A stretch of DNA of 64,000 bases, taken from assembly GCA_001799845.1 (NCBI GenBank), contig MGUG01000035.1, positions 717 through 64,716 of the forward strand. Direction: 5' to 3'. This document shows, piece after piece, positions 11,908-63,480 of the stretch (the stretch's first letter is position 1; the number at the start of each line of letters is the position of its first letter). This stretch comes from Elusimicrobia bacterium GWC2_64_44 (GTDB lineage: Bacteria > Elusimicrobiota > Elusimicrobia > Elusimicrobiales > UBA9959). Position numbers and translations under genes: made by a program. Under the pieces are notes generated by a model. It saw only the letters and a program-made list of their open reading frames with translations. It made no database searches and was not told where the DNA came from.

Positions 11908-12042
11908 GTGCCCCTCCGGAATCGCTCCGGATATCCCTTTTGCGACATTCTACCAAACAACAAGCGGGGCTCCCGGCAGATTTAAGTACGGAGACGAAGA
12001 ATTAGAAACTGAAATCTGCCTCACGCGCAGCAAGCGGAAAAG

Positions 12043-12074
12043 AAAAAGAGGGACCGATGTCCCTCTTTTTCTTT
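12043..12074 (-). terminator. rho-independent terminator ending the flbD-motAB-lipoprotein unit
   Basis: A 12-bp perfect stem: aaaaagagggac (12043-12054) pairs with gtccctcttttt (12059-12070). The loop is 4 nt. On the minus-strand RNA the hairpin is followed by a U-rich run, about 20 nt after the stop at 12090. Confidence 0.75.
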
Positions 12075-12089
12075 GGCGGAGCGCGCTCT

Positions 12090-12839
12090 TTATTGGCCGA
12101 AGTCGAAGCCTTTGAACAAATCCTCTTCCGCCTGAGTGCCGCCCGCCGGCGCGGCAGTATCACCTGCCGCCGGCTTGGCCGGCTCCGGTCCCTTGGCGCC
12201 GGGCAGGCTCTGCATGCGGCCCTTGCCCTCGCCCACCGGCTGCACAATGATCTTGCGCACGCCCTCGGCGAAAGCCAGGAAGCCCGTGTCGAGGTTGAAA
12301 TAAAGCCGGAAAGGGGATTCCTTCATCTGCGGCTCGTAGGCCTTGCCCAGGTTCAGCCGCTGCTGGTCCCAGCCCGGGTTATAGACCAGCTTGCCGCGCA
12401 CGTCCACCTCGTTGTCGGTGACCGGCAGCGAAAAGTGTATCTTGAAGAGCCCCATGGTATCGCTGATGCCGGGCGCGAAAGAGAGGTTGATCCCGGCGCC
12501 GGCGTTCTCTTCCATGGCGAAGGCGTCCGCGCCGTCGCCGCCGCCGCCTGCCCCGCCCTTGCCCGCGTCGGGCAGCACCTTCACGGTGACGCCCTCTATG
12601 GGGTTGCCCTGGTAATCGGTGATCACGCCCTGGACGTTGCCGTCGAGGAAAGTGCCCATCTTGGTGGTGGAGAAGAACAGGAACTCGCGTTTGCCGGTGA
12701 CCTTCCTGGTCAGAGAGAGGTCGCCGACGCGGGAGTCGGTGAAATCCACCACCTTCAGGCGCTTAAGCCCGCCCATGCAGCCCGCCAGCGGGGCGGCCAG
12801 CAGCGCAACAGCCAGTAATTTAACGAGTCGCTTCTTCAT
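12090..12839 (-). CDS. lipoprotein (hypothetical), 4 nt downstream of motB
   Basis: Lipobox in MKKRLVKLLAVALLAAPLAGC. A carboxypeptidase-regulatory-like beta-sandwich hint (GVITDYQGNPIEGVTVKVLPD). Pro/Ala-rich C-terminal tail. Confidence 0.7.
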   Translation of the reverse strand: MKKRLVKLLAVALLAAPLAGCMGGLKRLKVVDFTDSRVGDLSLTRKVTGKREFLFFSTTKMGTFLDGNVQGVITDYQGNPIEGVTVKVLPDAGKGGAGGGGDGADAFAMEENAGAGINLSFAPGISDTMGLFKIHFSLPVTDNEVDVRGKLVYNPGWDQQRLNLGKAYEPQMKESPFRLYFNLDTGFLAFAEGVRKIIVQPVGEGKGRMQSLPGAKGPEPAKPAAGDTAAPAGGTQAEEDLFKGFDFGQ

Positions 12840-12843
12840 AGAT

Positions 12844-13635
12844 CTAGTTGCCTCCCTCCGCGGGGGCCTCGCCGGCCTCCGCCGGGGTCTCGGGCGCCGC
12901 CGGGGTTTCGGCGGGCGGGGCCGGAGCTTCGCCGGGGCCGGGCAGCTGCGCTTCGGCCCCTTCGGCCGGTTTAGGCGCGGGGGCGTTTACCAGGCCCGGC
13001 GGCTGCGGCGCGTCGGGATAAGCGTTATTCTTGATGAAGAACACCACGCGGCGGTTCGTCTTGCGGTTGGCGACGGAAGTATTGGGGACCTTGGGGTGGT
13101 ATTCCCCATAGCCCACGGCCGCCATGCGCTTGGGCGGGAATTTTGCTCCCAGCATGGACATGACCACGCTGGTGGCGCGGGCGGTGGACAGCTCCCAGTT
13201 ATTGGCATATTCCTTGGTGGCTATCGGGATATCGTCGGTATGACCTTCCACCACTATGTCCTGCTTCTCGGCCAGTTTCAAAAGGATAGGGCTGATCTTA
13301 TCGAGCTGCGCGCGCATCTGGTCGGTGAGCTCGGCGCTGCCGCTCTCGAAGAAGGCCATGTCGCTCTGCTCCTCCATCGTTATGCGCATGCCCTCCTTGT
13401 CCATCGTCACGCTGCCGGACATCTTGCCTTCCTTGATCATCTCCTGGATGTCGGCCTGCGCCTTCTGCATGTCCTTGTTGAGGGCGGCGGAGAGGGCGTA
13501 GAGGATGACGAAGAAGCAGACCAGCTCGGTCATCAGGTCGGCGTAGTTGACCATCCACGGGGGCGCGGGCTCGCCTACGGGCGCCACGCGCCTGTCGTCC
13601 TCCGGGATCATTCCTTTTACGGCTCTTACGGGCAT
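12844..13635 (-). CDS. motB: MotB-type stator protein (OmpA-like peptidoglycan-binding C-terminus)
   Basis: WMVNYADLMTELVCFFVILYALS is the plug/TM segment with the conserved Asp. FESGSAELT...VVEGHTDDIPI...NWELSTARATSV...NRRVVFFI is the OmpA_C-like domain. A Pro/Ala-rich tail follows. Confidence 0.85.
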   Translation of the reverse strand: MPVRAVKGMIPEDDRRVAPVGEPAPPWMVNYADLMTELVCFFVILYALSAALNKDMQKAQADIQEMIKEGKMSGSVTMDKEGMRITMEEQSDMAFFESGSAELTDQMRAQLDKISPILLKLAEKQDIVVEGHTDDIPIATKEYANNWELSTARATSVVMSMLGAKFPPKRMAAVGYGEYHPKVPNTSVANRKTNRRVVFFIKNNAYPDAPQPPGLVNAPAPKPAEGAEAQLPGPGEAPAPPAETPAAPETPAEAGEAPAEGGN

Positions 13636-13653
13636 AGGTAATCGCTCCCGGGG

Positions 13654-14439
13654 CTAGGCCGGGGTCTCTTTCTTGATGGCGGCGCGGGCGGTCGGGTCCA
13701 GGTAGGCCTTCAGGTTGGCCTCCACCACGCTGGGCGTGGCGCCGCTCTGCAGCAGCAGCACGCCGCGGATGATGATCTCTTTTACGAACAGCTCCTCGTC
13801 GGAGCGGTTCTTGAGCTTGCCGCCCATGGGCATGAACAGCCAGTAGCCCGACGCAAGGCCGTAGAAGGCGGCGGCGAGCGCGAGGGCCATGCGGCGCGGC
13901 ACCTGGGCCACGTCGTCGATGGAGGAAAGCATCAGGATCATGCCGAGCACGGTGCCGATGATGCCGAACGCCGGGGCGTAGGTGCCCAGCGCGTTGAAGA
14001 TCTCGCGGCCGTTCTTGTGGCGCTCGCGGATGAAGTCGATCTCGGTCTCGAGCATGTTGCGGATGAACTCGTGGTCCGCGCCGTCGATGACCAGCTGCAC
14101 GCCGCGCTTGAGGAAGTCGTTGTCGATAGCCTTCACGTCGGACTCGAGCGACAGGAAGCCGTCCTTCTTGGCCTTCTGCGACAGCGACACGAACGTGGTG
14201 ACCAGCTTGGAGGTGTCCTCGCCCTTGGTGGTCAGCACCTTCTTGAGGATCTTGCCGGAGCCGATCACGGAGGAGAGCGGGAAATTGACCAGCAGCGCGC
14301 AGAAGGTGCCGCCCATGACGATCAGGAAGGCCTCGATGTTCATGAAGGGCTTGAAGCCCGCGATGCCTTCCTGCAGGTAGACGGACCCCAGCACGAAGCC
14401 CATGAAGACCACGATACCGCTTAATGTGCCTATATCCAT
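13654..14439 (-). CDS. motA: MotA/TolQ/ExbB-family proton-channel stator protein
   Basis: 261 aa with 4 predicted TM segments. The C-terminal half has the family pattern (AFGIIGTVLGMILML...ALALAAAFYGLASGYWLFMPMGGKL). It is flanked by flbD and motB. Confidence 0.85.
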   Translation of the reverse strand: MDIGTLSGIVVFMGFVLGSVYLQEGIAGFKPFMNIEAFLIVMGGTFCALLVNFPLSSVIGSGKILKKVLTTKGEDTSKLVTTFVSLSQKAKKDGFLSLESDVKAIDNDFLKRGVQLVIDGADHEFIRNMLETEIDFIRERHKNGREIFNALGTYAPAFGIIGTVLGMILMLSSIDDVAQVPRRMALALAAAFYGLASGYWLFMPMGGKLKNRSDEELFVKEIIIRGVLLLQSGATPSVVEANLKAYLDPTARAAIKKETPA

Positions 14440-14454
14440 GAGAGCAGCGTCTCC

Positions 14455-14679
14455 TTACTTTTTCTCGTAACCCTCCAGCGGGTTAATGCATTTCCTTTCG
14501 GAATAAACTTTCTTCTTGTACTCCACGACCAGGGCGATGACCTCGTCCACCGGGTTCCTGACCAGGTAGCGGTTGCCGGTGGCCAGGTTGATCACCGTGT
14601 CCGGCGAGCCCTCCACGCTCTCGATCAGTTCGGCGTTGACCACCACGAGCGAGCCGTTCAGTTTTTCGAGTTTGATCAT
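14455..14679 (-). CDS. flbD: FlbD-family small flagellar protein
   Basis: MIKLEKLNGSLVVVNAELIESVEGSPDTVINLATGNRYLVRNPVDEVIALVVEY matches the FlbD pattern. It occupies the classical position upstream of motA. Confidence 0.75.
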   Translation of the reverse strand: MIKLEKLNGSLVVVNAELIESVEGSPDTVINLATGNRYLVRNPVDEVIALVVEYKKKVYSERKCINPLEGYEKK

Positions 14680-14767
14680 GTCTTTTAATTATACTTTAAA
14701 TAAAAATAAAGGCGGCGGACGACCCCGGTCCCCCCCGCCGTTAAACACGCTCCGTCTCAGGCCCCAG

Positions 14768-17128
14768 TTACTCTTTTTTGCCTTTCAGGGCCCACTTAAG
14801 CCGTCCGCCCAGGGAGGCTTCTATGGCCCGGTATTTTTCCAGCTCGGCGGCCAGCTCGGCGGCGCGGGCGTTCTGAGCGGCGTCCTGCTCGGCGGCGGCG
14901 GACTGCAGGCCGGCGGCCCTGGCCTGCTCGGCCTCCAGCTGGGAGGCGGCTTCCTGGGCCTGGAATTCCATCTGCTGGATCTTCTGCTTGAGGAAAAGCA
15001 GCTCGGATTCGAAGCGGGAGCGGTTCTCGGCCTCGAGGCGCAGGTTCTCGGCCTGGGCCTTCAGGTTCTCTCCCTGCCCGCGGAGGGCTTCGTCGGCTGC
15101 GGCTTTCTGGGCGGCCAGGGCGGCATAACCTTCGCGCAGGGCGGCATATTCCGCGGCCAGGCGCTGGCGGTCGGCCTCCAGGGCGCGCGCCGTCTTCTCT
15201 ACCTCTTCTTTCTGGCCCGCCAGCAGGGCGGCCTGCTCGTCGCGCAGCTTCACCGAAGCCGCGGCGCGGGACATCTCTTCTTCGAAGTGTCTGGCCTTCT
15301 CCGCCAGGGCGCGGTCAAAGGTGGAGGCGTCGCCGGCCAGGCGGCGGTTCTCGGCCTCCAGGCGGGCCACCGCTTCCTGCGCGGCGGCCGCGGCGGCGCG
15401 GGCTTCCTTGAGCTGGTCCGTGTAGACGGACTCCAGCTGCCGCTTCAGCGCGGACTTCTCTTCCTCGGCGGAAAATTCGTACTTCATGCGCAGCTGCGAG
15501 AGCTTGGCGTCGAAGTCGGCCTGGCGCTCCCCGGACAGCCGGGCGAGCTCGGCCTGCTGGGCGGCGGCCTGGCGGGCCAGTTCGGCCTGCTTATCGGCGG
15601 CTGCCTTGGCCAGCTCGGCCTGCTTATCGGCTGTCACCCGGGCCAGCTCGGCCTGTTTCTCGGCGGTCACCCTGGCCAGCTCTTCCTGGCGGGCGCGGTT
15701 GAGCTCGGAGATCTTTTCCTCGTGGCGGCGGTTGAACTCGGCGGTCAGCTCGGTGCGGACCTTCTCCACTTCAGCCGCGGCGCGGGCGGCCATGGCCTCC
15801 AGCTCCGCCTGGTGGGCGCCCTTTATGCCGTCGCTCTCCTGCCTGAGCTTGCGCAGCTCCTCGAGCTGGCCGGCCATGTTCTGGGCGAGCTGCATCTTCT
15901 CCAGCTTCAGCTGGCCGCGCTCCTTCTCCAGCACGGCGTTGATGGCCTGCACGCGGGCCACAAAGCCCTTGATCTTCATGAGCTCGGAAATGGCGCGGAT
16001 CTTCTCTCCGGACACGTCGGCCAGGAGTTTCTCTTTCTCCTGCAGCTGGGCCTCATAGCCCTCGGCGGCCTTGCGCAGGGCCTCGTTCATCTCGGAATTC
16101 TTGCGGTCGGACAGCGTGCCGATCTCGGCCTGCAGGCGGCCTATCTCGCCCTGCACTTTCTCGGCCTCGTAGCGGACCTTCTCCTCGCGGTGGGACGCCT
16201 CCAGCCGGGAGGTCTCCTCGCGGCCGCGCAGGGAGGCGTTCTCGGCCTTGAGGTCAGCGATCTCGCGCTCCTTCTCGGGCATCATCTTGATCCAGCCCTC
16301 GATGGAGGCCTTTTCGCGCTCGGCGCGCGCCACGTCGTCGCGCAGCTTGGACGCCTCGCGCTCGGTCATGGACTTCTCGAGCGAGACCTTGCGGAACTCG
16401 TCCTCTACGTCGCGCAGGCGCTCCGCGGAGGTCTTCAGCGAGCGGATCGTCTCTTCGCGGCTTGAAATTTCCTTCTGCCACTGGGCTTTCTCGTCCAGCC
16501 AGCGGCGCTCCATCTCCTGGAGGCGGTAGATGAAATGGCCCTCGGTGTCGCGGCCCTGGGTCTCGCGCTCGGACATCTGGTTCTTGAGCGTGGTCATCCA
16601 GGTCTCGCGCTCCTGCGCCAGGCGGGATTCCATCTCCTTGATCTTGGACTTCAGCGTGAGGCGCTCCTCCTCGACCTCGTGGTCGCGGCGGTCGCGGCGC
16701 ATCTTCTCCTGTATATCCTTAAGGGAGGTCTCCACGCGGGAGGAGAGCACTTCGTCCTGCTGGCTCTTCAGCGTGGCCAGCAGCGCCTTCTCCTTCTCGG
16801 CGGACAGGAGCTTCTCCATGTCGTTGATCTTCTTCTCCAGCTTGTCCTTCTCCTCCTGCATGCGGCGGGACTCCGCCTCGGCGGCGTCCCTCTGCGCCTG
16901 CGTGGGGCCGGCGGGAGGCGCGGGCTGCTGGAAGTTTCCGGGCATGGCCGGGAAGGCCGGCGCCTGCATACCGGGCAGCTGGGGCATGGACGGCAGAGAA
17001 GGCTTGCCGCCGGGAGGAAGCGGCGGCAGATTGGGTTTGGCCATGCCCGGGGGAAGCGGGGGCATGCCAGGTTTAAATTTGTTCTTGTCCTTGTCGTCCA
17101 TAAACATTGCGCCTAGAGCCGGTATCAC
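14768..17128 (-). CDS. polyproline N-terminus + very long coiled-coil protein (hypothetical)
   Basis: The ORF-track start at 17128 is GTG; an ATG at 17107 (MFMDDKDKNKF) is an alternative. The N-terminus is PPLPPGMAKPNLPPLPPGGKPSLPSMPQLPGMQAPAFPAMPG. About 700 aa of E/K/R/A/L-rich heptad-like sequence follows. It includes the tandem units AEKQAELARVTADKQAELAKAAADKQAELARQAAAQQAELARL. Confidence 0.75.
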   Translation of the reverse strand: MIPALGAMFMDDKDKNKFKPGMPPLPPGMAKPNLPPLPPGGKPSLPSMPQLPGMQAPAFPAMPGNFQQPAPPAGPTQAQRDAAEAESRRMQEEKDKLEKKINDMEKLLSAEKEKALLATLKSQQDEVLSSRVETSLKDIQEKMRRDRRDHEVEEERLTLKSKIKEMESRLAQERETWMTTLKNQMSERETQGRDTEGHFIYRLQEMERRWLDEKAQWQKEISSREETIRSLKTSAERLRDVEDEFRKVSLEKSMTEREASKLRDDVARAEREKASIEGWIKMMPEKEREIADLKAENASLRGREETSRLEASHREEKVRYEAEKVQGEIGRLQAEIGTLSDRKNSEMNEALRKAAEGYEAQLQEKEKLLADVSGEKIRAISELMKIKGFVARVQAINAVLEKERGQLKLEKMQLAQNMAGQLEELRKLRQESDGIKGAHQAELEAMAARAAAEVEKVRTELTAEFNRRHEEKISELNRARQEELARVTAEKQAELARVTADKQAELAKAAADKQAELARQAAAQQAELARLSGERQADFDAKLSQLRMKYEFSAEEEKSALKRQLESVYTDQLKEARAAAAAAQEAVARLEAENRRLAGDASTFDRALAEKARHFEEEMSRAAASVKLRDEQAALLAGQKEEVEKTARALEADRQRLAAEYAALREGYAALAAQKAAADEALRGQGENLKAQAENLRLEAENRSRFESELLFLKQKIQQMEFQAQEAASQLEAEQARAAGLQSAAAEQDAAQNARAAELAAELEKYRAIEASLGGRLKWALKGKKE

Positions 17129-17191
17129 ATCTATATTCTAAAAGAACCCGATTTCTTTTTGGTTACAAGATTGTTAACAATTTAAAGGGTC

Positions 17192-17285
17192 GGGGACGTT
17201 GTTGAGTTGTTGAGTTGTTCGCAAAGTGTCTAGGGGGCAAGCATGGTCCATACATGAAACAACTCAACAACTCAACAACGTCCCC
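17192..17285. repeat. 28-bp perfect inverted repeat (long hairpin) between the FliF/FliG-fusion gene and the coiled-coil gene
   Basis: ggggacgttgttgagttgttgagttgtt (17192-17219) is the exact reverse complement of aacaactcaacaactcaacaacgtcccc (17258-17285). The loop is 38 nt. Each arm contains 2 tandem gttgagtt units. Confidence 0.85.
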
Positions 17286-17290
17286 TAAAT

Positions 17291-19243
17291 CTATCTCCCT
17301 ACGCTGGCCTTGAAACCGGCCAGCCATTCGGTGGCGGCGGGGTCACCGGACAGCGCGGCGTACTTCTCGTAGGCGGCCACGGCCTCGTCCACCCGCTGCA
17401 GCCCGTAATAGGCCGCGCCCAGGTACTGCCAGGTAGTCGCGTCGCCGGGGTTCGCGGACGAGGCGTATTCCAGGTACTGCAGGCTTTCCTGCACCTGACC
17501 CTGGTTGTACATATTGATGCCGGCGTCGGCGTACTGCTTCGCCTGCGCGGCCTGCTCCGGAGAGGGGCCGGCGGGGGCCTCTTCCTTCGGAGCGGCGCCT
17601 CCTGAAAGCTTCTCGTACTTCCTGCGGCGCTCGTCGCCCGAGGACATCTCGGCCCCGTCGATCAGGTAGATCTCCTGCGAGGAGCCGCCGCGCGAGGCGA
17701 TCTTGCCCTCCGCCTCCAGCGCCTTGATAGCGTCGAGGATCTTCATCTGCGCCTCGTCCTGCTGGGCCTGCGTGACGTTGCCGGAGTACTCCATGATCTC
17801 CTTGATGGCGTTCACCGCGCCCGAAGACATGTTGGCGAAGAACTTCTCCGAGATGGCCGGGTCGGCCTTGGCCACGGCGCGCGCGATATCCTCGTTGTTG
17901 AGGGCGCGGATAATGGTCTGGATGTCGCGGTCGGCGAACTCTATGATATCCTCGAACATCAGCACGATGCGCTTGACCTTGGCGTAGATGTCGGGCTTCT
18001 GCGTCTTGAGGTACTCTATGATGTTCTTGCGCGTGGCCGGGTCCGAGTCCTCGAGCATCTTCGACAGGCGCTCGATGCCGCCCATCACGAAATCGACGTT
18101 CTCCTTTATATCCCTGTCTATGGCGTCTATCTGCTCGCGCGTGGCCTGGCGCACCGTCAGCGCCTCCAGCGCCACGCGGCTCTGCATCTCCACGGGCAGC
18201 ATGGACAGCGCCTGGCGGGAAAGGTCCGGCTTCATATAGCTCAGCACTACGGCTATCACCCACGGGTCCTCTTTGCGCAGCAGGAACAGGTAGATGAGCC
18301 GCTTGAGGTTTTCCTCGTTCAGGTAAGTGAACGGTTCAAATTTCTTCATACTCTCGTCCTCTTCTTCCTTCTTCTCGTCCTCTTTCTGGAGGAAGTTCAT
18401 GTCTATGCTCTGGTGGCCCTCGGTCTCCTCCTTGCCCTCCTCATCGCCGCCGCCGCCTCCGCCCTCTTCCCGCTTGTCCTCTATGTTGACCTCGGCGCCG
18501 GGCTTGGCCATCAGGGCTTTGATGTACTTGCGGAAGAAGCCCCACAGCGGGCCGAACAGGAACAGCAGCAGCAGCAGGAACAGCAGCGCGTAAAGCAGGG
18601 GCAGGTAGACCGACGGCTTCTTGAGGTCGTCCAGGGGGTTAGCCGCCTTGAACTTGGTCGGTTTGAACAGCACGGTGGGCGCGTCCTTCTTGCGTATCTT
18701 GTAAGGCAGCAGGAAGTCGTCCACCCGCTCGCGGGCCAGTTTGACCGCGGCGGGCTGCAAAGTTTCGTCGTGGATGACGGTGAGCTGAAAGCGGGTGATC
18801 TCGGTCTCCACGCCGTAGCGGATCTCCTGCACGCCCTTGGCCTGCTGGGCCTGCTGGCCCGAGGCGGCTTCGGGGCGCTTGTTCTCCCCCCCCAGCACGG
18901 AGCGGGGCTTGGGAATGCCGGGCAGGATGAAATCGGTGTCGGGGCTGTCGGCGCCGGCGCCCTTCTCCTTGTACTTCTGCATGATGCCCAGGCCTTCCTT
19001 GGTCTGCTCGGCCTTCTTGGCTATCACTTCCAGTTCCACGTCGGCGAAGACGAAGGACCGGTCGGCCCCGAGGATGGGGTCGAGGATTTCCTTCTTGATC
19101 TTGGTCTCGGCCTCCCGGCGCAAACTATCCTGCTTCTCGAGCAGCGAAGTCTCCATCAACGGATTATCCGGGGCGTCCGCGGCATACATCCGCGCCGCCC
19201 CGAAGCCCGCAATGAGCGCCAGGACCGCAAAAAGCTTCCTCAT
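17291..19243 (-). CDS. membrane-anchored FliF(C-terminal ring/TM part)::FliG(middle+C domains)::TPR fusion protein
   Basis: Signal peptide MRKLFAVLALIAGFGAARMYA. FliF-like ring-building segments (ETKIKKEILDPILGADRSFVFADVELEV; EITRFQLTVIHDE). TM helix VYLPLLYALLFLLLLLFLFGPLW, then an acidic linker. FliG_M-like EDPWVIAVVLSYMKPDLSRQALSMLPVEMQSRVALEAL (EHPQ-box position). FliG_C-like RDIQTIIRALNNEDIARAVAKADPAISEKFFANMSSGAVNAIKEIMEYSGNVTQAQQDEAQMKILDAIKALEAEGKI. C-terminal TPR (AQAKQYADAGINMYNQGQVQESLQYLEYA...TWQYLGAAYYGLQRVDEAVAAYEKY). Confidence 0.75.
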   Translation of the reverse strand: MRKLFAVLALIAGFGAARMYAADAPDNPLMETSLLEKQDSLRREAETKIKKEILDPILGADRSFVFADVELEVIAKKAEQTKEGLGIMQKYKEKGAGADSPDTDFILPGIPKPRSVLGGENKRPEAASGQQAQQAKGVQEIRYGVETEITRFQLTVIHDETLQPAAVKLARERVDDFLLPYKIRKKDAPTVLFKPTKFKAANPLDDLKKPSVYLPLLYALLFLLLLLFLFGPLWGFFRKYIKALMAKPGAEVNIEDKREEGGGGGGDEEGKEETEGHQSIDMNFLQKEDEKKEEEDESMKKFEPFTYLNEENLKRLIYLFLLRKEDPWVIAVVLSYMKPDLSRQALSMLPVEMQSRVALEALTVRQATREQIDAIDRDIKENVDFVMGGIERLSKMLEDSDPATRKNIIEYLKTQKPDIYAKVKRIVLMFEDIIEFADRDIQTIIRALNNEDIARAVAKADPAISEKFFANMSSGAVNAIKEIMEYSGNVTQAQQDEAQMKILDAIKALEAEGKIASRGGSSQEIYLIDGAEMSSGDERRRKYEKLSGGAAPKEEAPAGPSPEQAAQAKQYADAGINMYNQGQVQESLQYLEYASSANPGDATTWQYLGAAYYGLQRVDEAVAAYEKYAALSGDPAATEWLAGFKASVGR

Positions 19244-19325
19244 ACAGTATTTATTTTATCTTTATCCTATTACAGAAAAGTTTCAGAATCGTTCATTCTT
19301 TACGGCTGGGGGCGCTCGTGGTTGG

Positions 19326-19612
19326 GCGGCATACCGCAGGGATAGGACCGCAAAACGCGTTCGCGCACACCGTGCGCTCACTCCGCATTCGGCCTCGGCG
19401 CTACGCAAGCCTCGGCCTCATGAGGGTTTTGCTTGTCCTACCCCTGCGGTCTCCGCCGGTTGCTCGCTTAGAATAGTACTGACACGGACGGAGGGGCGGT
19501 GAGGGTATGCCTTCGCAGGGGCCTCACGAGGCCCGAGCTTGCGTAGCGCGAGGGCCGAGCTGACAGAGCGAAGCCACGGTGTGGCCGAGCGTACCCGGAG
19601 AAGGCATACCCT
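19326..19612. repeat. two diverged, inverted copies of a hairpin-forming intergenic element of about 110-135 nt
   Basis: Unit 1 (19326-19458) closes through ggcggcataccgcaggg..aggac pairing with gtcct.cccctgcggtctccgcc. Unit 2 (19498-19612) closes through gagggtatgccttc (19501-19514) pairing with gaaggcataccctc (19597-19610). The unit cores are reverse complements of each other (cggcctcggcgctacgcaagcctcggcctcatgagg versus cctcacgaggcccgagcttgcgtagcgcgagggccg). Confidence 0.6.
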
Positions 19613-19633
19613 CGCCGGCCTGCCCCACCCCTC

Positions 19634-21250
19634 TTAGCGCACCTGCTTGAGGAAGTTGCGGACCATGGTGTTGTTGGGGTTGATCTCCACGACCTTCTCC
19701 CAGATGACCTTGGCCTTCTCCTTCTGGTCCATCAGGTAGAAAGAGCTGCCCATGATCTCGAGCGCGGTCTCGTTGTTGGGCTCGAGGTCCAGGATGTCCT
19801 GCGCGCGCTTCATGGCCAGGTCGTACTTGCCGTCATAGATGGCCTGGCGGGCGTCATAGGTGCGCTGGTCTATATAGGTAAAGATCTCGGGGCCCTCGGG
19901 CTTGCGGGTCAGCTCGCTCACGCCGGCCTCTTTCTCCACCATGTTCAGCAGCGACAGCAGGCGGTCGTTCTTCGGGTCCTTGTTGAAGGCGTGGCGCAGC
20001 ACGTTGACCGAGGCGCGCAGGTCCTTGCCGTCCACGTAGGAGATGATGCCGCGGCGGGTCAGGGTGGGCACCTCGTCGCCGCCGGTGGCGTCCGGCACGT
20101 AGTCGATGGCGCCCTGCAGGCGGGTCACCATGCGGCGGATCTCGGCGTTGCCGGGGTCGGCGTCCATCGCGGAGCGCAGTTTCTCCATCGCGCGGCCGAA
20201 GTAGCCGGACTTGAAGTACTGCAGCGCCTGGCGGATGATCTCGCGGACCTCGCGGTCGTGCTTGGCCTTGTTGCTCTGGCCCAGGCGCATCGTCACGGAG
20301 AAGCGGGTGGTGGTGCCGAGGGCGTGCACGCCCTGGGCGATGTCGAAGCCCAGGCTCTTGTACTTGATGCCGAGGCCGAAATCGGCCTCCTGGATCTCGG
20401 GGGAACCCATCACGCCGAAGCGCAGGGCGCTCCAGTACATCAGCCAGTACTCGCCGCCGAAGCGCCAGTTCATGTCGGCGCCCTGGGGCTTGACCAGGTC
20501 GAAGCCGAACAGCAGGCTGCCCTTGAACAGCGACAGCGCCTGGCCGAACTTCAGGGTCAGGGGCAGCTTGTCCTCGGTGTCGCCCGAGGCCATGGAGAAG
20601 ACGTTCTGGATGCCGATGGCGGCGCGGTAGGTCTTGGAGAACTTCTGCAGCATCGCGATGTCGATGGCGTTGAAGGAGTCGGCGGAGGTGTCCAGGGTGC
20701 GGGAGATGTTCTTGGCCATGATGCCGAAAGAAAGCTTATCGGAGACCTCGCGGCCCCAGGAGAAGGCCAGCGCGCGCTCCACGCTGTCGAAGGTGCCCAG
20801 GGTCTTGATGTCGATGATCTCGTCGCCGGCCGGGTTGGCGGTGATGGAGATCTTCTCAAAGCCCACCGACTTCAGCTGGGTCATGCTGACGGCCCAGGTG
20901 CCCTTGCTGGTAGTGGGGTGCGCGTAGGTGAAGAAGTTAAGGGTGGTGTCCGCGAACAGGGTGGCCTGCATCGCGGTGAACTCCTTGCGCTCGAGCATCG
21001 TCAGCGCGGCGGGGTTCCAGTAGGAGGCGGAGGCGTCGTCGGCCACCGCGAAGAAGGCGCCGCCCATGCCCAGGCCGCGGGCGCCGGCGCCGTAGCTCAT
21101 GAAGGCGCCGGGCTGGCCGCCGCTCTGCGCCAGGGCGTTAACGGCCGAAAAGGCAATAAAAAACCCCATGGCGAGGCTGAAGCGCATTATACGCTTCGTT
21201 TCAGCCCATATAGCCAAGGGGGCAAAGGCAATACAAAGATTGCTTTTCAT
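19634..21250 (-). CDS. FadL/PorV-like outer-membrane beta-barrel fused to a C-terminal TPR domain
   Basis: The likely true start is the ATG at 21187 (MRFSLAMGFFIAFSAVNALAQ signal peptide). The N-terminal barrel signature is AGARGLGMGGAFFAVADDASASYWNPAALTML, the FadL/TodX/PorV-type motif. Alternating beta-strand pattern runs to about aa 325. TPR-like repeats follow (YFKSGYFGRAMEKLRSAMDADPGN; YDGKYDLAMKRAQDILDLEPNN; KEKAKVIWEKVVEINPNN). Confidence 0.75.
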   Translation of the reverse strand: MKSNLCIAFAPLAIWAETKRIMRFSLAMGFFIAFSAVNALAQSGGQPGAFMSYGAGARGLGMGGAFFAVADDASASYWNPAALTMLERKEFTAMQATLFADTTLNFFTYAHPTTSKGTWAVSMTQLKSVGFEKISITANPAGDEIIDIKTLGTFDSVERALAFSWGREVSDKLSFGIMAKNISRTLDTSADSFNAIDIAMLQKFSKTYRAAIGIQNVFSMASGDTEDKLPLTLKFGQALSLFKGSLLFGFDLVKPQGADMNWRFGGEYWLMYWSALRFGVMGSPEIQEADFGLGIKYKSLGFDIAQGVHALGTTTRFSVTMRLGQSNKAKHDREVREIIRQALQYFKSGYFGRAMEKLRSAMDADPGNAEIRRMVTRLQGAIDYVPDATGGDEVPTLTRRGIISYVDGKDLRASVNVLRHAFNKDPKNDRLLSLLNMVEKEAGVSELTRKPEGPEIFTYIDQRTYDARQAIYDGKYDLAMKRAQDILDLEPNNETALEIMGSSFYLMDQKEKAKVIWEKVVEINPNNTMVRNFLKQVR

Positions 21251-21254
21251 CGTT

Positions 21255-21330
21255 TTCGGCAGCCTGACCCCCGCTTACTTAGCGGGTCTAAGCTTTGCGC
21301 CGCCAGCTTTCGCTGGCTTTGCTATTATCG
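21255..21330 (-). promoter_or_regulatory. candidate c-di-GMP-I (GEMM)-like riboswitch aptamer, copy A (5' leader of the PorV-like/motor operon)
   Basis: Minus-strand RNA: CGAUAAUAGCAAAGCCAGCGAAAGCUGGCGGCGCAAAGCUUAGACCCGCUAAGUAAGCGGGGGUCAGGCUGCCGAA. Hairpin 1 is GCCAGC-GAAA-GCUGGC (GNRA loop). Hairpin 2 is CCCGCU-AAGUA-AGCGGG. The flanks GCAAA, GCGCAAAGC and GCUGCCGAA match my memory of the GEMM consensus (GCAAA..GNRA..GACGCAAAGC..ACCGAA). It is 68/76 identical to copy B, with stem differences compensatory. Confidence 0.6.
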
Positions 21331-21375
21331 TAACAATACGGCATTACAACGCTGTTACAGATTTACGGCATTAAT

Positions 21376-21403
21376 ATTATAGCAGATAATATGGGTTTGT
21401 CAA
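21376..21403 (-). promoter_or_regulatory. sigma70-type promoter A (TTGACA-16 nt-TGcTATAAT)
   Basis: On the minus strand the -35 is TTGACA (21403..21398), the spacer is 16 nt, and the extended -10 is TGC-TATAAT (-10 at 21381..21376). The same architecture and spacing occur at 63342..63369. Confidence 0.7.
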
Positions 21404-21409
21404 GGGGGA

Positions 21410-21429
21410 GGTATTGACATGTCAATACC
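21410..21429. promoter_or_regulatory. perfect 20-bp palindrome upstream of promoter A (operator/activator-site candidate)
   Basis: ggtattgaca/tgtcaatacc is self-complementary. Its core TTGACA-TGTCAA sits just upstream of the -35. The counterpart ttgac-ag-gtcaa lies at 63381..63392, at the equivalent position of promoter B. Confidence 0.55.
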
Positions 21430-21525
21430 TATAGTATACCCCCTAAAACCCCCCTTTGTCCAGCCCCCCCCCGGCCCACTCTGACCAGGCCCTACCGCGC
21501 CCTGCACTCGCTTATGATGCGGCGA

Positions 21526-62104: not shown

Positions 62105-62737
62105 TTATTTTTTCGGCAGCGTCTGCAGCGCGTTGCCGGCCCAGAGCGCCGTTTTGGCGTCCTTGCCGGCCTTCAGCGCGTTCAGGGCGGCGCGCGCCCT
62201 GGCGGTACCTGTCTTGGCCAGGCTGTTGACCGCCGCCTTGCGCACCAGTTCGTCCTTGTCCTCGGCGGCGGCCTTGCGCAGCGGCTCCACGCCGTCGTCC
62301 GACTTAAGCCTGCCCAGCACCTCGGCCGACTTCAGCCGGGTATTGCGGTCGGCGTGGGACAGCAGGGCGCCCAGGGTCTTGGCCGCGCGCTTGTCGCCCA
62401 GGTCGCCCAGGGCGTCTATCAGCGGCAGGCGGGTTTCGTCGCCGGCCGCGGCCAGTGCGTCGGTAAGGGTTTTGTAGGCGGTCTTGTCGCCGGACTTGGC
62501 GAGCAGGCGGGCCGAGCGCTCGCGGACCTCGGGGTCCTTGTCGGCCATGGCCCGCTTGAGCAGTTCCGGCTTGCGCTGGTCCTGCATCCCGGACAGCTTG
62601 TTCAGGGCCTTGCGGCGCGTCTTGAAGTCGCCATCTGCCAGCTCGGCCTCGACCGAGGACAGTTCAGCCGACTGCTGGGCGGCGGCGAACACGGCGGGGA
62701 GCGCTATTAATATTACAGTAAATAGTAGTCTGTGCAT
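62105..62737 (-). CDS. periplasmic HEAT-repeat protein, translationally coupled to the giant gene
   Basis: I prefer the ATG at 62737 (MHRLLFTVILIALPAVFAAAQQ signal peptide) over the ORF-track start at 62953, which runs through an AT-rich non-coding-looking stretch. HEAT/PBS-lyase-type repeats: DPEVRERSARLLAKSGD, DETRLPLIDALGDLGD, DRNTRLKSAEVLGRL, DKDELVRKAAVNSLAKTG. The stop TAA (62105-62107) lies 6 nt before the giant-gene ATG (62098). Confidence 0.75.
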   Translation of the reverse strand: MHRLLFTVILIALPAVFAAAQQSAELSSVEAELADGDFKTRRKALNKLSGMQDQRKPELLKRAMADKDPEVRERSARLLAKSGDKTAYKTLTDALAAAGDETRLPLIDALGDLGDKRAAKTLGALLSHADRNTRLKSAEVLGRLKSDDGVEPLRKAAAEDKDELVRKAAVNSLAKTGTARARAALNALKAGKDAKTALWAGNALQTLPKK

Positions 62738-62806
62738 AGGCAAACAAAAAACGACCAGACCTTGCCCAGGCGTTTTTTTCCAGGGGCAAAGCACGGATAT
62801 TAAACC

Positions 62807-62834
62807 ATTATAATATAAATTAATTGTTTCGCAA
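62807..62834 (-). promoter_or_regulatory. possible proximal promoter (TTGCGA-16 nt-TATAAT) in an AT-rich patch
   Basis: On the minus strand the -35 is TTGCGA (62834..62829) and the -10 is TATAAT (62812..62807). The AT-rich context could produce this by chance. Confidence 0.3.
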
Positions 62835-62951
62835 ACGTTAAACGCGCGTGAACGACCGCCGGATACAATACAGCATCCTTCTCCCCTTCCGGGCAGACCG
62901 CCATAATATCCACGCGCCGTCACGGCTCTGGACATTTCGCCTCCCAGGCCC

Positions 62952-63026
62952 AAAAAAAGGGCCGTTTCTGCTCTCTTCGCCTCAACCCGGTTCTGGGCTG
63001 ATACCCCGAAGACAGCGGAAACGGCC
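62952..63026 (-). terminator. terminator-like hairpin about 50 nt downstream of aptamer B (candidate expression platform)
   Basis: On the minus-strand RNA, GGCCGUUUC (63026..63018) pairs with GAAACGGCC (62968..62960). C-U7 follows immediately (62959..62952). The enclosed loop of about 49 nt may add further pairs. Confidence 0.4.
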
Positions 63027-63073
63027 TAAATCCGTTCCGACACGCCGGCACAAAAACCGGTCGGTTCTTCATC

Positions 63074-63149
63074 TTCGGCAGCCTGACCCCCGTTCACATA
63101 ACGGGTCTTAGCTTTGCGCCGCCGGCTTTAGCCGGCTTTGCTATTATCG
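63074..63149 (-). promoter_or_regulatory. candidate c-di-GMP-I (GEMM)-like riboswitch aptamer, copy B (5' leader of the HEAT + giant-gene operon)
   Basis: Minus-strand RNA: CGAUAAUAGCAAAGCCGGCUAAAGCCGGCGGCGCAAAGCUAAGACCCGUUAUGUGAACGGGGGUCAGGCUGCCGAA. It has the same flanks as copy A. Hairpin 1 is GCCGGC-UAAA-GCCGGC and hairpin 2 is CCCGUU-AUGUG-AACGGG. Relative to copy A, both stems keep pairing through double substitutions. Confidence 0.6.
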
Positions 63150-63164
63150 GATACTTCAAAAAAC

Positions 63165-63271
63165 GTCCCGCCCTTTTGGGACACACACCGCGCTCACACT
63201 GCACCGCGTCTGTCTGCGACCGCAACCGCGACCGCACCGAACTACTCCGCACCGAGCCAAAAGGGCGGGAC
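63165..63271 (-). repeat. 15-bp inverted repeat bounding a 77-nt insert in leader B; terminator-like on the RNA
   Basis: gtcccgcccttttgg (63165-63179) is the reverse complement of ccaaaagggcgggac (63257-63271). On the minus-strand RNA the hairpin is followed by GUUUUUUG. The segment is absent from leader A, which has only 45 nt between the -10 and the aptamer. Confidence 0.6.
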
Positions 63272-63341
63272 ACCACGACCGCACTACAACCACGCTACGC
63301 AACGCCACAACCGCACCGCAACTGCACCACGCTGCAAATAT

Positions 63342-63369
63342 AGTATAGCAGATGGAGCGGGTTTGTCAA
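63342..63369 (-). promoter_or_regulatory. sigma70-type promoter B (TTGACA-16 nt-TGcTATACT)
   Basis: On the minus strand the -35 is TTGACA (63369..63364), the spacer is 16 nt, and the extended -10 is TGC-TATACT (-10 at 63347..63342). The flanking sequence is homologous to promoter A (tatagcagat....gggtttgtcaag). The upstream palindrome ttgac-ag-gtcaa is at 63381..63392. Confidence 0.65.
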
Positions 63370-63480
63370 GCCCTGCCAGCTTGACAGGTCAACACCTGGC
63401 CGCCGACGAAAACACTCGGCGGTTAACTGCCCGGACCCGCGCCGCAACGCTTGGCAGGGCGGCCGCATGGCCCAGTCAGA

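Follow-up and report, generated by a model that had tools for sequence, protein, structure and literature searches.

The window analysed here, a stretch of 64,000 nucleotides of contig MGUG01000035.1 from Elusimicrobia bacterium GWC2_64_44, carries two neighbouring operons read on the minus strand, each of which begins with a copy of the same structured RNA. In the operon behind the first copy (copy A), the leading gene (19634..21250) encodes an outer-membrane protein of the PorV/PorQ family with C-terminal TPR repeats (NCBIfam NF033709, 111 bits with a cutoff of 90), followed by a FliG-like protein (19243-17291; PDB FliG 1lkv, E = 2.4e-32), a 786-aa protein, MotA (14439-13654) and MotB (13635-12844), the last two recognised by the NCBIfam models of these proteins. 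The second copy (copy B) precedes a gene for a 276-aa HEAT-repeat protein (62105..62945; Pfam HEAT_2, E = 5.8e-35), in which a conserved N-terminal FNVCETINLYYNGLISVLC motif and a hydrophobic segment accompany the repeats, and directly after it a 13,461-aa Ig-repeat ORF (62098-21713) with Big_13 and Big_3 domains. Together, the genes of both operons resemble the parts of a motility or surface machine. Since a scan of metagenome proteins with the N-terminus of the giant protein returned no relatives for copy B, its orthologues were gathered by a DNA-pattern scan.

Both copies are transcribed from near-identical sigma-70 promoters with a TTGAC..GTCAA palindrome just upstream, an arrangement which the original prediction had described and which is conserved in orthologues. 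The predicted promoter of copy A, TTGACA-N16-TGcTATAAT (21376..21403; boxes 21403-21398 and 21384-21376), matches the hexamers at 12 of 12 positions, has an extended -10 and has been retained by 55 of 57 orthologous upstream regions. Its -35 box is preceded, at a distance of about 10 nt, by the palindrome TTGACATGTCAA (21414..21425), the core of GGTATTGACATGTCAATACC and a putative regulator-binding site, whose TTGAC-N2-GTCAA pattern is kept in 53 of the 57 distinct upstream regions of the copy-A class. The corresponding promoter of copy B, TTGACA-N16-TGcTATACT (63342..63369; boxes 63369-63364 and 63350-63342), and its palindrome TTGACCTGTCAA (63381..63392) are both kept in most copy-B orthologues. 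The two leaders also hold elements of their own. Directly 5' of the copy A aptamer, a hairpin GUAAC...GUUAC (21330..21358), conserved across orthologues, is flanked by a direct repeat TAATGCCGTA (21373-21364 and 21346-21337). In copy B, some 190 nt separate the promoter from the aptamer downstream, and this space is occupied by a further conserved structure (63158..63274), seen in the copy B leader only: a long-range helix (arms 63274-63257 and 63179-63164, then U6 at 63163-63158) with 77 nt of G/U-rich RNA enclosed between its arms. Of 40 distinct copy-B leaders, about 30 have this helix, and its arms occur in at least seven compensatory variants. An Rfam search with the G/U-rich element found no family, only noise (P4 sRNA, 17.5 bits with a gathering score of 37), and a search for tandem repeats turned up no more than weak arrays of 6 and 11 nt. 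The element is a conserved, structured and unannotated part of the copy B leader.

The RNA common to the two leaders had been noticed as a 76-nt repeat, and comparison of the minus-strand segments 21255..21330 and 63074..63149 confirmed identity at 68 of 76 positions. The eight differences correspond to aptamer positions 17, 20, 26, 41, 49, 52, 55 and 57. The paired stem changes pointed out in the original prediction are real, being two compensatory pairs at positions 17/26 (A-U to G-C) and 49/57 (C-G to U-A); a recount, however, places seven of the eight differences in the two hairpins instead of six, the eighth being an unpaired junction base. The search with the RF01051 covariance model of Rfam that had been proposed for both loci was significant on the minus strand for each copy, copy A matching at 21255-21333 with 60.2 bits (E = 2.8e-9) and copy B at 63074-63152 with 55.8 bits (E = 3.3e-8), in both cases over model positions 1-87 and with a gathering score of 35 bits, which bears out the suggested GEMM-I identity. 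Orthologous leaders scored 51-63 bits with the same model, and the copy-B orthologues 51-57 bits. The leaders of 46 related Elusimicrobiales genomes, in which covariation had been expected, show it strongly on the GEMM-I fold: among 38 distinct sequences, pairing holds in 95.4% of the cells, and double-sided changes occur at 13 of 20 pairs. None of 500 shuffled controls matched the observed values, slid registers of the alignment gave only 27-48% pairing, and RNAalifold independently arrived at the same helices. The junction strings GCAAA, CGCAAAG and CCGAA, including A47 and C92, are invariant in 48 of 48 aligned sequences, in agreement with the consensus given in the original prediction. It could be argued that nothing is sensed here, and that a promoter-leader module was duplicated and has been conserved by protein binding or by the recency of the duplication, given that promoter and palindrome were copied along with the element. 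Against this, the likeness of the two copies stops precisely where the aptamer ends on either side, both covariance-model scores lie far over the threshold and many independent compensatory changes are found in more than 100 sequences; this explanation is effectively refuted by the RF01051 scores and the covariation. Thus, the two segments are paralogous and genuine members of the GEMM-I (c-di-GMP-I family) riboswitch class, an RNA class that is already known.

Within the aptamers, P2 of copy A is GCCAGC-GAAA-GCUGGC (21317-21302) and P3 spans 21294-21261. A longer Watson-Crick P1 could not be defined from the flanks; the annotation of the RF03167 model gives only a short P1, in which the CG of CGAUAA pairs with that of CCGAA and one outer pair is added. 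In type-1 aptamers, a GNRA tetraloop on P2 docks in a CCUAAG...UAUGG receptor of P3, which is an optional feature of the class. The original prediction had read the GAAA loop and the CUAAG of copy A, together with the UAAA loop of copy B, as a type-1/type-2 pair in which tetraloop and receptor were lost jointly. The CUAAG is indeed present in copy A, but it is located in the loop that caps the second hairpin and is not an internal-loop receptor; the canonical receptor is absent in both copies, RF01051 model positions 51-54 and 67-69 being deleted. Moreover, CUAAG is found in 13 of 33 copy-A-class sequences with a GNRA tetraloop and in 7 of 12 without one. The type-1/type-2 reading was therefore rejected, as neither copy has a canonical receptor and CUAAG is not associated with GNRA. 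Compared with Vc2 of Vibrio cholerae, the structural reference for RF01051, both copies share the three-helix junction with its conserved strings, A47 and C92, the short P1 and the control of motility and surface genes. They differ in carrying A20 in place of G20 and a short P3 without tetraloop receptor, and copy B also in its non-GNRA UAAA loop.

That position 20 is an A in both copies was missed in the original prediction. The RF01051 alignment gives the same A20/A47/C92 pocket for copy A (21323, 21296 and 21259) and copy B (63142, 63115 from the fixed offset, and 63078), with A at model position 11 (at maximal posterior probability), A at 38 and C at 83; the G20 of c-di-GMP-selective GEMM-I aptamers is lacking. 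A20 is found in 44 of 46 orthologous genomes, G20 only in L040 and L042, and the A20 state is strictly conserved over more than 100 distinct sequences. The roles of these bases are documented: G20 recognises G-alpha and confers selectivity for c-di-GMP, A47 intercalates between the ligand bases, C92 pairs with G-beta, and A20 creates cGAMP recognition, the A20G change returning Gmet_0970 to c-di-GMP selectivity (PMC6140456, PMC6456294). Both copies show the feature that distinguishes GEMM-Ib, namely A20 with A47 and C92 kept, which puts them in the A20 sub-population while their membership of the GEMM-I fold family stands. However, natural A20 aptamers may be bispecific or favour c-di-GMP, as illustrated by Cbe 1-2 (c-di-GMP 30 nM, cGAMP 463 nM, via a protonated adenine), so that A20 alone is insufficient for cGAMP selectivity (PMC6140456). 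Judging from the A20 pocket, the ligand of both aptamers could be c-di-GMP, 3',3'-cGAMP or both. Cbe 1-2, from Clostridium beijerinckii, resembles the Elusimicrobiales aptamers as a natural A20 aptamer outside Geobacter; its bispecificity has been shown.

It is tempting to go further and to regard the aptamers as selective 3',3'-cGAMP sensors, that is, true GEMM-Ib, which would imply a cGAMP pathway in these Elusimicrobiales. The complete pocket in both copies and in 44 of the 46 genomes, its strictness across the larger set and the A20G reversion all point in this direction; the behaviour of natural A20 aptamers such as Cbe 1-2 speaks against it, as does the fact that L040 and L042, the two most divergent leaders of the same gene, carry G20, which suggests that c-di-GMP may be the signal throughout. 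We consider selective cGAMP sensing unlikely, and the claim that these pockets serve as physiological 3',3'-cGAMP or dual cGAMP/c-di-GMP sensors rather unlikely. The 64-kb window contains neither a GGDEF nor a CD-NTase gene. The c-di-GMP-I-GGC variant (RF03167) was also considered and set aside. Its hallmark is a G in place of A47 (consensus GACGCGAAgC, compared with GACGCAAAgC for RF01051), whereas the two copies in the window and L040 keep A47 and read GGCGCAAAGC. L040 has its marginally best match with RF03167 (61.1 bits, gathering score 59), which stems from overall shape, the hallmark base being absent.

Intrinsic terminators, which had escaped the original prediction, form the expression platforms of both copies. 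In copy A, the platform is merged with the regulated gene. Its true start codon is the first in-frame ATG (21248..21250), 4 nt past the aptamer as originally described and without a Shine-Dalgarno sequence; all of the 47 sequences have an ATG 4-8 nt past the aptamer and in frame with the outer-membrane protein, although the N-termini differ in length (29-71 codons). The ATG at 21187 does lie in the loop of a GAAGCG/CGCUUC hairpin, but was rejected as an alternative start since it is not conserved, being ATA in several orthologues, while 21250 is in frame in all of them. Codons 3-8 contain a hairpin, H1 (GCAAU-CUUUGU-AUUGC, 21228..21243), with a compensatory swap between GCAUU/AAUGC (23 sequences) and GCAAU/AUUGC (16 sequences) which changes the encoded residues. 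The terminator follows at 21155..21223, starting 32 nt past the aptamer 3' end and lying 28-96 nt within the ORF, as a compound GC-rich hairpin (21223-21164; arms GCCCCCUUGGC...GCCAUGGGG) and a U-tract (21163-21155, UUUUUUAUU) that encodes the FFI of the signal-peptide core MGFFIAF. It is found in 45 of 59 orthologues (median dG -29.6 kcal/mol, z = -4.4); a CCCC...GGGG stem is conserved, and the arms vary in sequence but remain complementary (CCCCCUUGGC/GCCAUGGGG, CCCCGC/GCGGGG, CCCCGUUAAGAAG/CUUCUUAACGGGG). This is a compact design, with the start codon adjoining the aptamer and the terminator contained in the opening 30 codons of the gene under control.

One may ask whether copy A controls translation only, the stem and U-run within the ORF being a by-product of the signal peptide or plain mRNA structure. 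The closeness of a start codon lacking a Shine-Dalgarno sequence to the aptamer, the FFI encoded by the U-run and the description of Vc2 as a translational switch (PMC9262584) are all compatible with this. Yet the U-run is built from codons that are rare in the gene cluster (TTT 41 and TTC 508, or 7%; ATT 38 and ATC 434, or 6%), and TTT-TTT-ATT is conserved there across orthologues; the pairing of the stem is maintained through differing sequences, and an unambiguous terminator occupies the corresponding position in the paralogous copy B. Control of translation only is, in our opinion, quite improbable. A possible antiterminator of copy A, pairing GCGGGGG of the aptamer with GCCCCC of the terminator, was discarded because L023 alters the aptamer strand with no compensating change, and a search for a convincing covarying antiterminator in copy A found none.

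The platform of copy B is laid out in the untranslated leader. Its terminator (62952..63026), which starts 48 nt past the aptamer 3' end, consists of a 19-bp interrupted stem (GGCCGUUUCCGCUGUCUUCG/CGAAGAGAGCAGAAACGGCC) with an inner hairpin, followed by U7; the stem is 97.3% paired in 25 distinct orthologues, and one position occurs as five pair types. The 3' tail of the aptamer, CCGAAGAUGAAGAA (63065..63078), is a candidate antiterminator strand: its CCGAAGA could base-pair with UCUUCGG (63012-63006) of the terminator 5' strand, and this invariant heptamer is exactly the part of the terminator complementary to the tail. A second complementarity, GGAACGG/CCGUUUC, is also conserved. Neither pairing varies within the copy-B class, and covariation is therefore absent. 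Beyond the terminator, the HEAT gene has a Shine-Dalgarno sequence GGGAGG at 62945-62940 and an ATG at 62935. A start at 62737, with an untranslated spacer of 335 nt, was revised to this position because a conserved Shine-Dalgarno sequence and ATG follow the terminator (at 11-31 nt) and, in eight orthologues, the reading frame that opens there continues into the HEAT protein. A promoter-like AT-rich block (62834-62807) was also observed downstream of the terminator; it could allow riboswitch-independent expression of the copy B genes.

In this riboswitch class, the relative position of aptamer and terminator has been linked to polarity. The OFF switch Cd1 has a coexisting aptamer and terminator with a competing antiterminator, while in the ON switch pilM the terminator overlaps the aptamer (PMC9262584). 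Neither terminator of our pair overlaps its own aptamer, so that both structures can coexist as in Cd1, and this layout favours an OFF switch. We thus infer that both copies are GEMM-I riboswitches with separate terminators acting as cyclic-dinucleotide OFF switches, a reading to which we would give a probability of about 60%, and two neighbouring operons are most likely shut off by the pair. Binding of the cyclic dinucleotide would involve A20, A47 and C92 in the three-helix junction. At low ligand, the aptamer 3' strand (in copy B, probably the tail CCGAAGA together with GGAACGG) would pair with the 5' strand of the terminator and RNA polymerase would read through; at high ligand, this strand would be locked in P1 and the junction, the terminator would form and transcription would stop. 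In copy A, the folded, liganded aptamer probably also impedes ribosome loading, and a loaded ribosome would break up the terminator, so that both levels of control would be coupled. The output would be repression of the HEAT-repeat protein and the 13,461-aa surface protein from copy B, and of the PorV-like outer-membrane protein, the FliG-like protein and MotA/MotB from copy A. Full-length minimum-free-energy folds contain both aptamer and terminator regardless of ligand, and the switching decision would therefore have to be kinetic.

The same riboswitches might instead work with ON polarity, the ligand preventing termination or opening the start codon as in Geobacter pgcA and pilM. All cited, experimentally characterised riboswitches of the A20 type (Geobacter GEMM-Ib) are ON switches (PMC6456294, PMC9262584), and an antiterminator for copy A is not evident from thermodynamic folds alone. 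ON switches of the class, however, need an overlap of terminator and aptamer (PMC9262584), and here the terminator begins only after a gap, of 32 nt in copy A and of 48 nt in copy B, and can coexist with the aptamer; in copy B, the aptamer tail complementary to the terminator 5' strand also lies outside the terminator itself. Gene content can be read in both directions. Classically, c-di-GMP represses motility, as with Cd1 upstream of flagellar genes, and regulated genes that resemble a motility or surface machine fit this logic; it usually induces adhesins, and if the Ig-repeat protein is one, induction would be expected, which counts against the OFF model. Overall, we regard ON polarity as possible but less likely; were it true, the giant surface protein and the machine would be induced by the cyclic dinucleotide.

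The OFF reading finds its closest parallel in Cd1 of Clostridioides difficile, which likewise precedes a motor/motility operon, with an OFF response (predicted here), and combines a coexisting aptamer and terminator with a long spacer supplying the antiterminator. Unlike our copies, Cd1 has G20 and senses c-di-GMP, and its platform lies wholly in the 5' UTR, whereas the hairpin and terminator of copy A are within the ORF. The Geobacter GEMM-Ib riboswitches (Gs1761/pgcA, Gm0970, pilM) share the A20/A47/C92 pocket, intrinsic-terminator platforms and the occurrence of multiple copies per genome before genes for extracellular or surface structures; they differ in being ON switches with terminator-aptamer overlap, in contrast to the separate terminators and OFF-type layout found here, and the host phylum here is Elusimicrobiota. 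Copy A also recalls pyrBI-type attenuation, in which translation of a leader keeps an intrinsic terminator from forming, since a ribosome that initiates at 21250 would pass through the terminator hairpin as it translates, which would offer a means of linking translation initiation with transcriptional read-through. In copy A, however, it is the N-terminal part of the controlled protein that would be translated, and a riboswitch would take the place of NTP-dependent pausing as the gate.

A literature search for c-di-GMP riboswitches in Elusimicrobia found nothing, and no Elusimicrobia paper was among the best 10 of 2,665 matches on T9SS/FliG-type machines. As the RNA class is textbook knowledge, our finding leaves the understanding of riboswitches unchanged. 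It does provide more than 100 natural aptamers with an A20 pocket outside Geobacter, together with G20 orthologues before the same gene, and this A20/G20 series is clean natural material on the evolution of c-di-GMP versus cGAMP selectivity. If cGAMP or dual sensing were true, the Elusimicrobiales would be the second lineage with a cGAMP riboswitch regulon after the Geobacter group, a regulon that would switch an undescribed envelope machine, in which flagellar-type MotA/MotB stators would be joined by a FliG-like rotor piece, an outer-membrane protein of the PorV family and the 13,461-aa Ig-repeat surface protein; one cGAMP switch would then have its terminator in coding sequence, with translation and termination coupled. 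To conclude, our results place a large, hitherto uncharacterised gene cluster of uncultivated groundwater Elusimicrobiales under a concrete second-messenger input, and this input marks the cluster as a behaviour-switching system, for motility or attachment.

The segment 21255-21330 recurs at 63074-63149 on the minus strand with 68 of its 76 positions identical, and the likeness between the two copies is gone within a few bases beyond either edge. Among the eight differences are two clean compensatory pairs, one per hairpin (A-U changed to G-C in the first, C-G to U-A in the second), as the original prediction of a repeat with compensatory stem changes had it; the others are three changes in hairpin loops, including the first tetraloop base, and one unpaired junction base. 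An Rfam scan of the whole window at gathering thresholds returned only two matches, both on the minus strand and both to RF01051 (c-di-GMP-I, gathering score 35) over the full model: copy A at 21255-21333 (60.2 bits) and copy B at 63074-63152 (55.8 bits). Searching a one-genome-per-species collection with the gene downstream of copy A yielded 51 orthologous loci. Fifty of them carry an Elusimicrobia/Elusimicrobiales label or belong to MAGs listed as unclassified "bacterium", with groundwater and sediment as the main sources; the exception, L051, is an Ignavibacteriales MAG and the weakest hit (31% identity). Every one of the 46 orthologous loci that retain upstream DNA has the aptamer in the corresponding position. 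An alignment of the orthologous leaders and the two window copies, 38 distinct sequences in all, showed 95.4% pairing on the GEMM-I structure, with both-sided changes in 13 of 20 pairs; these values were reached by none of 500 shuffles, and pairing fell to 27-48% once the register was shifted. The same helices were obtained from RNAalifold without a supplied structure, and divergent orthologues and copy-B-class sequences also passed the Rfam threshold, at 51-63 bits. The two outcomes that would have counted against the original prediction, a missing covariance-model hit and a lack of covariation in relatives, thus did not occur, and the duplicated element is a GEMM-I riboswitch aptamer. Copies A and B are thus new members of an already known riboswitch class.

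The predicted duplication also extends to the control region, both copies being preceded by a TTGAC(A/C)TGTCAA palindrome and then a cTTGACAaaccc-N-atcTGcTATA(A/C)T promoter. The TTGAC-N2-GTCAA sites (21414-21425 and 63381-63392), roughly 10 nt 5' of the -35, are kept ahead of both riboswitch classes in many genomes among the loci L001-L170, and this conservation implies that a shared putative DNA-binding regulator acts on top of both classes. The 45-nt leader from the copy A promoter to the aptamer holds the direct repeat TAATGCCGTA twice (21364-21373 and 21337-21346, minus strand), flanking a GUAAC/GUUAC hairpin and kept in close orthologues. A second promoter-like site, TGGACA-N18-TATACT (21433-21462, minus strand), adjoins the copy A palindrome on its upstream side; it is kept in the closest relatives and is preceded by a G9 run at about 21465-21480; longer poly-G tracts stand there in several orthologues (e.g. 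L064 and L015), and such tracts may be slippage-prone. In the leader of copy B, a conserved long-range helix, GGUGUCCCGCCCUUUUGG / CCAAAAGGGCGGGACG (63158-63274, minus strand), encloses 77 nt of G/U-rich RNA with GCGGU-like repeats and a conserved GGUCGCAGACAGACGCGGUG, with U6 after it. This helix is found in about 30 of 40 orthologous leaders, with at least seven compensatory arm variants and an inner length of 44-112 nt, and has no matching family in Rfam. Possible roles are a second attenuator or a platform that binds a protein or an sRNA.

In the Vc2 reference structure, one guanine of c-di-GMP is recognised on its Hoogsteen face by G20 and the other forms a pair with C92, with A47 stacked between the two (PMC6140456). 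The cGAMP-sensing GEMM-Ib riboswitches have A in place of G20 (PMC6140456), and the selectivity of the Gmet_0970 riboswitch passes from cGAMP to c-di-GMP through A20G (PMC6456294). Position 20 is A in both window copies (21323 and 63142, minus strand), with maximal posterior probability in the RF01051 alignment, and both A47 (21296 in copy A) and C92 (21259 and 63078) are kept. Of 46 orthologous genomes, 44 have A20; the exceptions, with G20, are L040 and L042, the two most divergent leaders (63% protein identity). A20-like variants are rare "snugglers" within the GEMM collection according to a review (PMC7266159), and A20 aptamers differ among themselves: Gs1761 is about 1000-fold cGAMP-selective, and the natural aptamer Cbe 1-2 prefers c-di-GMP (30 nM, against 463 nM for cGAMP) by means of a protonated adenine (PMC6140456). 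The A20 pocket by itself therefore does not settle the ligand of copies A and B. The G20/A47/C92 aptamer of L040 (105-187) is won in Rfam clan competition by RF03167 (c-di-GMP-I-GGC; 61.1 bits, gathering score 59). We rejected this membership, as the hallmark of that model, G at position 47, is absent from L040; inspection of the model showed it to be absent from both window copies as well. The case shows that care is needed when short-P3 GEMM-I aptamers are annotated automatically.

Scanning metagenomes for the invariant A20-type core CGATAATAGCAAA-N16-GGCGCAAAG gave at least 119 stretches and at least 116 distinct aptamers. Among the matches listed, 45 belong to the copy A class, with the C-terminus of a giant Ig-repeat protein upstream and an outer-membrane protein downstream, and 38 to the copy B class, with a HEAT-repeat protein and the giant N-terminus downstream; many of the remaining 33 lie in other contexts, with the canonical CCUAAG...UAUGG receptor. 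The P3 receptor positions are deleted in both window copies in the Rfam alignment. Among the same matches, a GNRA loop is carried by 33/45 of the copy A class and a UAAA, UUAA or CAAA loop by 30/38 of the copy B class. The idea that tetraloop and receptor were lost together, as in type-1 and type-2 aptamers, found no support, because the CUAAG terminal loop in the copy A class is no commoner with GNRA (13/33) than without it (7/12) among the matches listed. A separate group of metagenomic A20-type aptamers (L053, L073, L077, L103, L121, L128, L134, L137 and L142) combines a CAAA loop with a P3 region some 60 nt long (GCCAGACAUCCGAAAAC...GGAUCGGUCGGCU), and its members share the same sequence downstream, aaggcaaacacagggaaacc.

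Downstream of copy A, 47/47 sequences have an ATG that stands 4-8 nt past the aptamer and shares the frame of the outer-membrane protein gene, although the conserved GGQP motif lies anywhere from 29 to 71 codons away. The ATG at 21187 was rejected as a start, since it reads ATA in several genomes whereas the 21250 frame is constant. Comparison of orthologues thus puts the start codon at 21250, where no Shine-Dalgarno sequence is present. Codons 3-8 form a hairpin with a compensatory A-U/U-A swap (GCAUU/AAUGC in 23 vs GCAAU/AUUGC in 16 sequences) that exchanges Asn and Ile, so it is the RNA that is under selection. Codons 10-32 form a GC-rich compound hairpin (median dG -29.6 kcal/mol, z = -4.4; 45/59 distinct sequences) with closing CCCC(C)/GGGG, then UUUUUUAUU, and its arms vary by lineage with complementarity kept. 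The U-tract is written in TTT-TTT-ATT codons, in a cluster where TTT accounts for 41/549 Phe and ATT for 38/633 Ile; this usage argues for a terminator embedded in the ORF and under nucleotide-level selection.

Past the aptamer, copy-B-class sequences have a small hairpin, then a conserved GGAACGG, and then a long hairpin GGCCGUUUCnGCUGUCUUCGG...CGAAGAGAGCnGAAACGG with a U-run. Across 25 distinct sequences the main terminator stem is 97.3% paired, and its n/n position shows five pair types. The invariant UCUUCGG of the terminator 5' strand is a perfect complement of the aptamer tail, CCGAAGA, and GGAACGG is complementary to CCGUUUC. A Shine-Dalgarno sequence and ATG stand 11-31 nt beyond the U-run, and the ORF from this ATG, with a conserved motif FNVCETINLYYNGLISVLC, runs in frame into the HEAT-repeat protein in eight orthologues, so the start of the regulated gene is assigned to 62935 and the layout reads as the classical aptamer, terminator, Shine-Dalgarno, ATG. 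Within the N-terminal 66 residues of this protein (62737-62935, minus strand), the Cys-containing FNVCETINLYYNGLISVLC is encoded by an AT-rich block with a promoter-like TTGCGA-N16-TATAAT (62807-62834, minus strand); YYN is written TAT-TAT-AAT there, in a genome of 65% GC. The block may be dual-use, coding and serving as an internal riboswitch-independent promoter.

A comparative NMR study reported that aptamer and terminator coexist in the Cd1 OFF switch, in competition with an antiterminator, and are mutually exclusive in the cGAMP-sensing pilM ON switch (PMC9262584). The terminators of copies A and B begin 32 and 48 nt past the aptamer, respectively, and are separate from it as in Cd1, in contrast to pilM. 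In copy B, the 3' strand of P1 would be the natural antiterminator partner. Both features favor ligand-induced termination (OFF), to which we give a probability of roughly 60%. ON polarity would agree with the characterised A20 riboswitches, which are ON switches, and with the classical expectation that c-di-GMP induces adhesins, and we consider it less likely given this layout. With OFF switching, the liganded aptamer of copy A would also crowd the ribosome-binding region, and an initiating ribosome would unwind the terminator inside the ORF, so that both levels of control might be coupled.

The first gene directly after copy B (minus strand) encodes the 276-aa HEAT-repeat protein and is followed after 6 nt by an ORF of 13,461 aa with bacterial Ig-like domains (weak Big_13 and Big_3 matches). 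The first 2000 residues of this ORF have no Pfam family match, and its C-terminal part shares 46-85% identity with the sequences of orthologous contigs. This giant ORF is single and uninterrupted over 40.4 kb (21713-62098, minus strand). Copy A lies about 380 nt past its stop, with no obvious terminator in between. Seven genes follow copy A, in this order: a TPR-repeat outer-membrane protein of the PorV/PorQ family (NF033709, 111 bits, cutoff 90); a 650-aa protein that matches the middle and C-terminal domains of FliG over residues 303-525 (PDB 1lkv, E = 2.4e-32) and also has TPR repeats; a protein of 786 aa without a family match; MotA and MotB of the flagellar type; an unknown 249-aa protein; and a second HEAT-repeat protein. 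The cluster extends over 10000-21250 and 21713-62935 (minus strand). We found no literature on c-di-GMP riboswitches in Elusimicrobia, and no Elusimicrobia among the top-ranked matches on T9SS/FliG-type machines. The A20 pocket, the OFF-type layout, the terminator inside coding sequence, the conserved G/U-rich helix of the copy B leader and the unusual regulon are worth recording. Its gene content gives the cluster the look of a surface motor or of an apparatus that handles adhesins, and it may be a machine of Elusimicrobiales, so far undescribed, for surface motility or for moving adhesins.
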